Positions 55,831 through 57,223 of a stretch of DNA of 64,000 nucleotides are shown one piece after another; within the stretch, counting starts at the first letter, position 1, and each line of letters starts with the position of its first letter. Location of the stretch: contig NZ_CP027773.1 of NCBI RefSeq assembly GCF_003019815.1, positions 5,019,324 through 5,083,323 on the forward strand, read 5' to 3'. The stretch comes from Variovorax sp. PMC12 (GTDB taxonomy: Bacteria > Pseudomonadota > Gammaproteobacteria > Burkholderiales > Burkholderiaceae_C). Under the pieces are notes generated by a model that did not search any database, was not told the DNA's origin, and saw nothing but the letters and a program-made list of their open reading frames with translations. Both the position numbers and the translations under genes were made by a program.

Positions 55831-55904
55831 GTCAGTGATCCGTTGCGCGTTGTCTTTGCTTGCTTGTCGTTTTTGTCGTTGGTTTGTTCGGGGCTTGTGC
55901 ACAG

Positions 55905-56135
55905 GCCACCGGGTACTCCCCTCCGCGAATGTCCCCCGGGGCTGCGCCCCTCCTCCTTTATTTCGCTGCGGGGAGCACCCGGCGCCCTGTGCACAGGGCA
56001 CGCTGCCGGTTCGAAGCCGATCAACCAGCGCTCTGTCCAACGATCACGACGGCGGGGTGCCTTGCGCAGCGAAATAAAGGAGGAGGCCGCAGGCCGGGGG
56101 AAATTCGCGGAGCAAGGTACCCCGTCGGCGTGAGC
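55905..56135. repeat. Large imperfect palindromic element of about 230 bp (roughly 80-bp arms at about 85% identity around a roughly 70-bp centre) filling the 350-bp gap between livH and livMG, MITE- or REP-like
   Basis: Left arm ..ccaccgggtactcccctccgcgaatgtcccccggggctgcgcccctcctcctttatttcgctgcgggg.. Right arm is its reverse complement ..ccttgcgcagcgaaataaaggaggaggccgcaggccgggggaaattcgcggagcaaggtacccc.. The centre holds the palindrome GCCCTGTGCACAGGGC. Confidence 0.75.
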
Positions 56136-56182
56136 GCGCCCCGAATGACCCATGGAGCGACAAACATGAGAAGGGATGTTCA

Positions 56183-57223
56183 TCAGTGCTCCTCGTCCGA
56201 ATGCCCGCTGCGCAAAGAACGCCACAGCAGCACCGGCAGGATGATGGTGAACACGATCACCTCCTTGAACGAGCTCGCCCAGAAAGAGCCGAAGGCCTCG
56301 ATCACGCCCACCGCCAGCGCACCGATCAGCGCGCCCGGATAGCTCGCCAGGCCCGCGATCACGCCGGCGACGAAGCCCTTCAGGCCGATGAGAAAACCCG
56401 AGTCGTAGAACACCGTCGTCGTCGGCCCGATCAGGAGCCCCGACAACGCGCCGATCAGCGCCGCCATCGCGAACGTGAGCTGCCCCGCCGCCTGCGTCGA
56501 GATGCCCATCAGCCGCGCGCCGAGCCGGTTCACCGCCGTCGCGCGCAGCGCCTTGCCATACAGGCTGCGCTCGAAGAAAAGCCACAGCAGCACGATCAGC
56601 GCCGCCGACACGCCGAAGATGATCAGCGCCTGCCCGCTCACGTTCAGCGGCCCCAGCGCCATGCGCTCGTCCCAGAACGGCGGATTGCGGAAGCCCTCGG
56701 CGCCGAAGAACAGCAGGCCCAGCCCCGTCATCGCGAAATGCACGCCCACCGACACGATCAGCAGCACCAGCGAACTCGCGCCCGCCAGCGATTGGTAAGC
56801 CACCCGGTACACCAGCGGCCCGAAAGCCGTGACGATGAACACCGTGAGCAGCGCCTGCACGCCGATGGGCAGGTTGCGCGGGCCGGCCCAGGCCGACACC
56901 GCGCAGACCACGGCCGGCAGCGCGAAGGTGCGCAGCGCGGCTTTCAGCCCGGCCGCCGCGCTGCCGCTGTGGCGCCAGACGCTCACCAGGTCCATCAGCG
57001 CGGCGACGCCGGCCAGGATCAGCAGCAGCCACACCGTGCCCGGCGTCTTGCCGGTCTGGAAGATCGCCAGCGTCAGCGCGCCGTACGCCACGAATTCGCC
57101 CTGCGGGATGAAGATGACGCGGGTCACCGTGAAGACGAGCACGATGCCCATGCCCAGCAGGGCATAGATCGCGCCATTGGTGAGTCCGTCCAGCGTCAGG
57201 ATGCTGGCGATCGAGAGATCCAT
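56183..57223 (-). CDS. Branched-chain amino acid ABC transporter permease (LivH-like)
   Basis: 346-aa polytopic membrane protein. LivH-family motifs. Confidence 0.85.
   Translation of the reverse strand: MDLSIASILTLDGLTNGAIYALLGMGIVLVFTVTRVIFIPQGEFVAYGALTLAIFQTGKTPGTVWLLLILAGVAALMDLVSVWRHSGSAAAGLKAALRTFALPAVVCAVSAWAGPRNLPIGVQALLTVFIVTAFGPLVYRVAYQSLAGASSLVLLIVSVGVHFAMTGLGLLFFGAEGFRNPPFWDERMALGPLNVSGQALIIFGVSAALIVLLWLFFERSLYGKALRATAVNRLGARLMGISTQAAGQLTFAMAALIGALSGLLIGPTTTVFYDSGFLIGLKGFVAGVIAGLASYPGALIGALAVGVIEAFGSFWASSFKEVIVFTIILPVLLWRSLRSGHSDEEH

Follow-up and report, generated by a model that had tools for sequence, protein, structure and literature searches.

In the 64,000-nucleotide (nt) stretch of Variovorax sp. 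PMC12 DNA analyzed here (NZ_CP027773.1, positions 5,019,324 to 5,083,323; the window), liv genes of an ABC transporter operon lie on the minus strand, and livH is separated from the downstream livMG gene by a non-coding spacer of 352 nt (55831-56182). In this operon and in its orthologs, livM and livG form a single fusion of 603 amino acids (aa) that combines a permease with an ABC ATPase; livF begins 1 nt past the fusion. The Variovorax sp. PDNC026 chromosome (CP070343.1) matches the window at 100% identity over 4,041 nt that take in the gene of a LivK-type binding protein, livH, the spacer and the beginning of livMG. An earlier note on this DNA, made from the letters alone, had called the spacer unusually long and non-coding, with arms that are imperfect reverse complements, and had taken it for an inserted imperfect palindrome; its coordinates were exact, and the spacer folds with z scores of -8 to -10. 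The livH-livMG spacer is a lineage-specific insertion of a non-coding repeated element, and that element consists of two inverted copies of a hairpin unit (the module) with a short closing helix, not of one big palindrome. Coordinates are collected in Table 1.

The spacer can be recognized as wholly inserted DNA because filled and empty orthologous sites were compared. Among 80 metagenomic loci encoding close LivH relatives, the element is present at three (LivH identity 100%, 100% and 95%), whereas element-free orthologs with LivH identities of 97%, 92% and 87%, together with about 70 others, have the livH stop and the livMG start 1 nt apart (TGAcATG). When filled, the site has the sequence GAGGAGCACTGA-(345 bp)-CACTGAcATG; when empty, it is GAGGAGCACTGAcATG. 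The insertion, at 345-351 bp, is the entire spacer. The roughly 230 bp given in the earlier note was too short for this and also for the conserved core of 262 bp. All 10 contigs that encode an identical LivH are filled, three of them breaking off within the element. The direct repeat that flanks the insertion, a 6/6 match over CACTGA, can be lengthened to GGAGCACTGA versus GGATCACTGA, which agree at 9/10 positions. With the insertion, the 1-nt coupling of livH and livMG is lost, as is the in-gene GAGGAG ribosome-binding sequence before livMG, in whose place ACGGATCAC now stands, and the liv transcript gains a highly structured stretch of 350 nt. A conserved open reading frame through the spacer, or a lack of other copies and of empty sites, had been named in the earlier note as what would speak against its proposal. 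Copies and empty sites were found, and such a reading frame was rejected: the orphan ATG and the downstream TGA are 349 nt apart and out of frame, the length differences among tips are not multiples of 3, and some orthologous sites are empty.

A second liv junction can be occupied as well. In Variovorax sp. H27-G14, another copy lies exactly at the livMG-livF junction, which is empty in the window, and the 3' end of livMG (GAACATTGAcATG) is nearly the same as the sequence at the livH insertion site. Several metagenomic orthologs carry other DNA between livH and livM. About six tandem copies of an unrelated unit of ~97 nt (CACCCCCAGGCTTCGCGCACTGCG...GGCGGACCGGCAAAGCCGGATCCGCGGTGTTCACTGGCT) are found at L132:4036-4660; a different insert of 130 bp, made of two ~68-nt units and bounded by a perfect 12-bp direct repeat across the stop-start junction (CATTGACATGAA), is found at L146:4042-4172; and two more unrelated spacers of 127-154 nt are found at L200:1375-1528 and L199:4039-4165, the first of which has GGCGGACCGGCAGAGCCGGATCCGCGG in common with the L132 unit. 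The liv stop-start junction has received at least four unrelated insertions in different lineages, and these repeated hits suggest that insertions land at coupled junctions in general.

On three Variovorax replicons of >1 Mb (megaplasmids or chromids), 14 places match the spacer at 83-89% identity, in each case within unrelated flanks. A 19-mer common to both arms was scanned in a one-genome-per-species collection, which yields a lower bound, and was found in at least 120 genome stretches. Most of these are from Variovorax; the other carriers are Hydrogenophaga, Ramlibacter, Polaromonas, Rhodoferax, Piscinibacter, Aquabacterium, Pseudorhodoferax, Xylophilus, Hylemonella and one Stagnimonas metagenome-assembled genome. 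The module is spread across the Comamonadaceae, with dozens of copies per genome. Many matches lie at contig ends, as expected because repeats break assemblies. In a fetched sample of 203 loci (~1.4 Mb), BLAST found 45 full-length copies at 37 distinct loci, so that the 262-bp core is known from at least 37 Variovorax loci besides that of the window. The proposal of a multi-copy inserted element was borne out both by copies in many unrelated contexts and by empty sites in close relatives. The window holds no further copy, and no viral contig matched the core 19-mer. Rfam 15 gave no family at the gathering score, its single match being a spurious one to a long plant hairpin (MIR918, 47.5 bits versus 268), and a literature search by organism, element type and sequence likewise found no description of the element.

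The spacer folds beyond its shuffles on both strands (-189.4 kcal/mol, z = -8.05, and -201.4 kcal/mol, z = -9.76), with 0/100 shuffles as good. The RNAalifold consensus of the 45 copies consists of two local hairpins, L and R, and a 6-bp closing helix, P0. In this local structure, 97.5% of the alignment cells are paired against 90.9% after shuffling and the covariation score is 0.233 against 0.112, values that 0/500 shuffles reach; 26 of its 61 pairs have changed on both sides in a compensatory manner. P0 contributes an A-U to G-C covariation at alignment columns 23/350, the L helix has 27 pairs (11 with compensatory changes, 97.4% paired), and the two R helices together have 28 pairs (13 compensatory). 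A giant hairpin joining arm to arm was rejected as the conserved fold, being 85.8% paired against 85.5% in shuffles with a covariation of 0.097 against 0.095; 46/500 shuffles reached the observed pairing and 94/500 the observed covariation.

In the window copy, the arms are nonetheless conspicuous. They are 86% complementary over 35 nt (55949-55983/56052-56086) and 81% over 32 nt (55908-55939/56094-56125), and the 22-mer CCTCCTCCTTTATTTCGCTGCG occurs once per strand where 0.00 occurrences are expected by chance. The earlier description of two 80-bp arms around a 70-bp core is thermodynamically fair, since it corresponds to the best fold of this copy, but arm-to-arm covariation does not exceed that of shuffles. 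Similarly, the perfect palindrome that had been placed in the core is present (GCCCTGTGCACAGGGC, 55984-55999) but is simply the foot of the left hairpin; a local inverted repeat lies within the left arm (55889-55929/55962-56002), and the conserved pairing is this local one rather than the long-range one.

Each module folds on one specific strand, the plus strand for R and the minus strand for L. Across 167 distinct modules, the sense (folded) strand has 328 G.T against 10 A.C oppositions, and wobble is more frequent on the sense strand in 147 modules and on the antisense strand in 1. Since wobble is nearly confined to one strand, the module folds as a single strand of defined polarity. In R, 115 G.U cells on the plus strand compare with 1 A.C, and on the mRNA strand the same module contains A.C mismatches and only 88.7% canonical pairs, compared with 97.8%. 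Folding energies of the window copy also favor the sense strand over the antisense strand, at -73.7 versus -67.5 kcal/mol for L and -56.1 versus -46.9 kcal/mol for R.

The module, of ~95-115 nt, consists of a long stem of variable but co-varying sequence, GCGAAATAAAGGAGGAG, a short G+C tip hairpin, CGGGGGACATTCGC and the returning stem, and its internal loop, with GCGAAATAAAGGAGGAG on one side and CGGGGGACATTCGC on the other, is purine-rich and invariant. These loop sequences recur in other genera, within hairpins whose stems are different yet complementary. Relative to the family consensus GGGGGACATTCGC, the R core of the window copy has one substitution. The tip on the folded strand is C(GNA)G in 115 of ~141 cases, with C(GAA)G and C(GCA)G together accounting for 111; GCGAAGC is the commonest (49 copies), and CCGAAGG, the ssiA form, occurs within several others. 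GCGAAGC is a mini-hairpin that is extremely stable as DNA and far less so as RNA, and d(GCGNAGC) mini-hairpins are known in single-strand initiation signals (PMC13037366; PMC3201870). No GTAG/CGTC tag is conserved at the foot of the stem across genera, CGTC being present in the Variovorax R stem only.

Table 1. Coordinates of the liv genes and of the parts of the inserted element, as positions of the window.
Feature	Position	Strand	Basis
livH-type permease (upstream gene), 346 aa, PF02653 (BPD_transp_2)	56183..57223	-	domain match
fused livM-livG (downstream gene), 603 aa, PF02653 + PF00005 (ABC_tran) + PF12399	54019..55830	-	domain match
whole insertion, 351 bp including one copy of the flanking direct repeat	55832..56182		filled/empty site alignment; gap lengths at 80 orthologous loci
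CACTGA, last His codon and stop of livH; upstream copy of the flanking direct repeat	56183..56188	-	site alignment
CACTGA, downstream copy of the direct repeat, 1 nt before the livMG ATG (55830-55828)	55832..55837	-	possible target-site duplication
outer flank, L side; poorly conserved, T/G-rich (A/C-rich in mRNA)	55838..55883		alignments
conserved 262-bp core in all full-length Variovorax copies	55884..56145		BLAST limits, alignments, conservation profile
closing helix P0, 5' half: GGGGCT; family consensus RGGGCG; pairs with 56137-56142	55890..55895		covariation
left hairpin module L; folded (sense) strand is the minus strand, the liv mRNA strand	55897..55994	-	covariation, strand assignment
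invariant core of L: GCGAAATAAAGGAGGAGG - tip hairpin GGGGCGCAGCCCC, C(GCA)G loop - GGGGGACATTCGCG	55924..55966	-	alignment
centre between modules; kept within Variovorax only; CGATCAAC at 56018-56025	55995..56040		conservation profile
right hairpin module R; folded (sense) strand is the plus strand, antisense to the liv genes	56041..56136	+	covariation, wobble
invariant core of R: GCGAAATAAAGGAGGAGG - tip GGCCGCAGGCC, C(GCA)G loop - GGGGGAAATTCGCG	56069..56109	+	alignment
closing helix P0, 3' half: CGCCCC	56137..56142		covariation
outer flank, R side; rough mirror image of the L flank	56146..56182		inverted repeats

All 74 doublets are arranged tail-to-tail, with 0 head-to-head and 0 in tandem, and most have 100-109 nt between their cores; about 32 internal modules are singlets that have no partner arm. 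In Variovorax, the doublet as a whole is probably the unit of amplification. Identity between the two stems of a doublet is affected by indels, and for other genera we make no claim that they are unrelated. The terminal inverted repeats are RGGGCG/CGCCCY with TGTTC/GAACA just outside (TGTTCRGGGCG...CGCCCYGAACA), extendable to ~19 bp in many copies, and the outermost 40-55 nt at either end mirror each other but are poorly conserved. On the mRNA strand, the R-side flank opens with an orphan ATG that overlaps the livH stop (TGATG). Other copies have tandem arrays of 12-17 nt in the outer flank. At L007:4330-4392, (GGTGCCGTTCCT)x4 adjoins the L end of the element, as does (GGGGCGCTGCTGTTC)x3 in the left flank of the copy at 5393-5682 of L121, and each array unit repeats the element terminus together with the neighboring flank.

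Full-length Variovorax copies lie 20-90 nt from each neighboring gene. Between co-directional genes, the doublet has one orientation in 29 copies and the other in 2 (~25 versus 2 by distinct loci); eight full-length copies have convergent neighbors and three have divergent ones. Among singlets no preferred orientation is seen, with 7 on the same strand as their neighboring genes, 9 on the opposite strand and 9 between convergent genes. Whichever strand is read, a transcript meets the pyrimidine-loop form first and then the purine, Shine-Dalgarno-like form beside the downstream gene. A doublet of the same module family is also found between livH-like and livM-like genes of Pseudorhodoferax sp. 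Leaf265 (L040:3500-3800), where the order of L-core and R-core runs with transcription rather than against it as in the co-directional Variovorax contexts, although L/R homology is not assignable outside Variovorax. LivM/G-like ABC proteins are the commonest neighbors (21/123 loci). We do not claim specificity for liv genes, as the other neighbors, judged by eye from their sequences, look diverse (TonB-type receptor, sensor kinase, amidohydrolase).

In the 18 copies compared, both insertion junctions often resemble a stop-start junction, with an orphan ATG overlapping the upstream stop codon or lying at most 2 nt after it in 11/18 and an orphan TGA at most 1 nt before the downstream start codon in 6/18. 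Such paired junctions fit a duplication of the coupled junction. Across the same 18 copies, direct repeats scored 6.72 within loci and 6.88 between loci, and a first generic scan for target duplications did no better than a control with the right flank reversed. Local GC skew, used as a proxy for replication direction, was confounded by gene orientation.

Copies of the family appear to be in motion. They are present or absent at orthologous sites of close relatives and form genome-specific subfamilies. A fully compensated variant of the R stem (CTCTTTTTCGCGAA...TTCGCGAAAAAGAG, GCGAAGC tip) has seven copies, all in Variovorax sp. GB1P17, at seven loci (L026, L032, L055, L074, L076, L082 and L117), and this indicates amplification of a variant master copy. 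In two metagenomic contigs (L124:4042-4393 and L125:4042-4377), the flanks are 99.8-100% identical whereas the elements are merely 84.7% identical, with differences that are limited to the centre, the L module and one flank and include a 12-nt deletion, and each allele recurs in several samples. Given near-identical flanks around a diverged element, this looks like partial replacement of one copy by another, presumably via ectopic gene conversion. At orthologous sites, hairpins keep their pairing and diverge faster than the coding flanks.

On balance, we favor, with a probability of roughly 0.6, the view that the element is a non-autonomous mobile repeat, a doublet of hairpin modules propagated through folded single strands, which resembles the hairpin-forming doublets (REPINs) of repetitive extragenic palindromic (REP) sequences and the bacterial interspersed mosaic elements (BIMEs). 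Use of a single strand in propagation is argued for by folding on a defined strand, by singlets whose strand is independent of the direction of transcription, by the maintenance of R on the strand that is not mRNA, and by the DNA-type tip. The module would be the recognition structure of an enzyme acting in trans on folded single-stranded nucleic acid, more likely DNA than RNA, as are the substrates of REP/REPIN systems with REP-associated tyrosine transposases (RAYTs) or the ends of IS200/IS605. In Variovorax, the doublet would be the unit amplified, landing preferentially at tight operon stop-start junctions in one orientation relative to transcription; the simplest account of the orientation bias is that the doublet inserts in a fixed orientation into a target that is itself polar, the stop-start junction. 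In the liv operon, the element is probably a tolerated passenger that would abolish the 1-nt translational coupling of livH and livMG and give the transcript an RNA structure of ~190 kcal/mol, with predicted helices of 25-30 bp that RNase III could cut.

Several points weigh against this view. The minimum-energy RNA fold of the window copy is the giant hairpin, at -189 kcal/mol compared with -147 kcal/mol for the local folds only. The CACTGA flanking repeat (9/10) is unusual for single-strand transposition of the HUH type, and a real target duplication would argue against an HUH mechanism. Both the strong bias of orientation with respect to transcription and a perfect Shine-Dalgarno-like 8-mer within the invariant loop (AAAGGAGG) could point to a role at the RNA level, and a content of ~9% wobble pairs in stems is equally typical of RNA and DNA. 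Finally, no mobilizing enzyme was found near copies in the 203 loci (~1.4 Mb) by clustering of neighbor proteins and a Y1-transposase probe. The 25 largest neighbor-protein clusters, judged without a domain scan from their size and a preview of 60 residues, contained no recurrent transposase-like family. One Y1_Tnp protein (PF01797, E = 7e-12) with a C-terminal helix-turn-helix is encoded at L031:632-1516, between a toxin-antitoxin-like pair and dnaG. Association with a RAYT was rejected, as this gene, the only Y1_Tnp gene in the 1.4 Mb and a marginal match to the probe, has no flanking modules and is 4.7 kb away from a singlet; it has no homologue on the three copy-bearing Variovorax chromids.

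Propagation through single strands could be taken one step further. It is possible, although we consider it doubtful, that the ~100-nt module is the single-stranded DNA substrate of an undescribed mobilization or DNA-processing system of the Comamonadaceae, one that would be REP-like but with its own recognition logic, would do without the GTAG/CGTC tag and possibly without a RAYT, and would target operon stop-start junctions in one orientation.

The element could have arisen and spread in a few other ways. First, it could be a classical miniature inverted-repeat transposable element (MITE), that is, an insertion sequence shortened by deletion and mobilized as double-stranded DNA, with a DDE transposase recognizing the terminal inverted repeats and leaving a target duplication of fixed length. 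The element is indeed small (<600 bp), non-coding and multi-copy, has terminal inverted repeats (TGTTCRGGGCG...CGCCCYGAACA, up to ~19 bp in many copies) and is polymorphic for presence at orthologous sites, empty ones included; the window copy has its perfect 6-bp direct repeat (9/10 when extended), many copies have two junctions resembling duplicated stop-start junctions, and the unrelated L146 insertion at the same junction shows a perfect 12-bp duplication. However, direct repeats are no better within loci than between them, and neither a parent insertion sequence nor a transposase was seen near any copy; no insertion sequence with the ends of the element was found in the 203 loci, in a search that was not exhaustive for DDE-type families. 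Conservation is lowest in the outermost 40-55 nt, the expected binding site of a transposase, and highest in the mid-arm internal loop, compensatory changes within arms and strand-specific wobble are unexpected for a site bound as double-stranded DNA, and the module also occurs as a singlet. We therefore regard a classical MITE as unlikely. Between the two labels offered in the earlier note, MITE and REP/BIME-like, the second is the nearer one; the first needs a consistent target duplication and a parent insertion sequence, neither of which is established.

Second, the element could be a selected cis-acting RNA element of operon transcripts, with mobility as a mere means of spread. Its possible roles include a processing site for RNase III or RNase E, a 3' stabilizer of the upstream cistron, a stand-by or decoy site where ribosomes would use the AAAGGAGG loop, and a partial attenuator. 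An orientation bias of ~25 to 2, the location of copies almost only between co-directional or convergent and rarely between divergent genes, the order of the pyrimidine-loop and purine forms along the transcript, the ~9% of G.U wobble pairs in module stems, an A/C-rich, unstructured mRNA-sense flank beside the downstream start codon, and hairpins at orthologous sites that stay paired while outpacing the coding flanks in divergence would all be in keeping with such a function. Yet singlets have no orientation preference, the R module is kept on a strand that is almost never mRNA and has A.C mismatches on the mRNA strand, the Shine-Dalgarno-like loop has no start codon after it, the neighbors look functionally unrelated, and ~70 orthologous operons work without the element; moreover, any tolerated selfish insertion would also be expected to avoid divergent promoter regions. 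The earlier note had suggested an intra-operon attenuator or stabilizer, a role that the sequence does not support because the element contains no intrinsic-terminator-like and no promoter-like site: its T-rich stretch (TCCTCCTTTATTT) sits in an internal loop, has just 3 T among the first 8 bases and is not a T run following a stem. A selected cis-acting role thus appears improbable to us.

Third, the sense strand of a module could be an independently transcribed small RNA gene or give rise to an antisense RNA against the liv transcript, in keeping with the strand-specific folding of each module and with an R sense strand that is antisense to the operon. The lack of a promoter-like site and of a terminator in the element, the lack of an Rfam family match, the dozens of copies per genome with variable stems and loops alone invariant, and the occurrence of the same module in both orientations relative to its neighbors make this very improbable. 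Finally, a one-off local rearrangement or chance palindrome with no family behind it can be dismissed on account of the shuffle controls, the 45 full-length copies and the at least 120 stretches with the core motif.

The main points of interest are the clear signature of single-strand folding, the invariant loop and the recurrent use of coupled stop-start junctions as landing sites. The element is a well-delimited addition to the repeat families of environmentally important bacteria (Variovorax, Hydrogenophaga, Polaromonas, Ramlibacter and others), and it explains why assemblies repeatedly break at contig ends and why some intercistronic gaps are unusually long. Near-identical strains that differ solely by a structured 350-bp insert at a coupled junction, or by the copy that occupies it, provide a natural experiment, and a mobilizing factor can be searched for directly by way of the clear strand specificity of folding, the tip with its DNA mini-hairpin and the invariant loop.

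Among known systems, REP sequences and REPINs with their RAYTs, which are tyrosine (HUH/Y1) transposases, are likewise extragenic and multi-copy (PMC3116915; PMC3337134; PMC3479197). Their unit is also an imperfect hairpin that folds on a defined strand, they occur both as singlets and as inverted doublets, of which the doublet can fold as a long hairpin and is the amplified unit, and they form genome-specific subfamilies at co-directional or convergent intergenic sites. The element shares with them inverted doublets alongside singlets and a hairpin of defined strand, but not the short tagged unit or a flanking RAYT: a REP is 20-40 nt long compared with ~95-115 nt for the module, its conserved part is the GTAG/CGTC tag at the foot rather than a large internal loop with a mini-hairpin at the tip, and it is present in hundreds of copies per genome rather than tens. 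In addition, no RAYT flanked by copies was found here, and a possible target duplication is present.

BIMEs, and in particular the enterobacterial BIME-1/RIP with its two inverted REPs and conserved central motif, likewise consist of two inverted hairpin units around a centre conserved within a lineage, lie inside operons and have modules that were apparently recombined between copies. Their sequences are unrelated to that of the element, whose units are much larger. Compared by eye, the centre of the element agrees only in part with the IHF consensus (ATCAA...). The Correia/NEMIS elements of Neisseria and the ERIC elements of enterobacteria and Yersinia are MITEs that are likewise imperfect palindromes of 100-350 bp, located between operon genes and co-transcribed with them, with empty sites in relatives. 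Their hairpins are cut by RNase III or RNase E, and their orientation can affect mRNA stability. They differ from the element in having defined terminal repeats, target duplications of TA or similar and no internal strand-specific hairpin modules, and the sequences are dissimilar.

The motif at the tip of most modules, on the folded strand, is the same as that of the d(GCGNAGC) mini-hairpins of the phage G4 origin, RSF1010 ssiA and the phage N4 promoters (PMC13037366; PMC3201870). Those are single functional sites in phage or plasmid origins, whereas the modules are dispersed chromosomal repeats; that modules might act in priming or in the exclusion of single-stranded DNA-binding protein would be pure speculation. 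Taken together, the nearest systems are the REPINs and BIMEs by architecture and strand-specific hairpins, and the Correia/ERIC MITEs by size and location.

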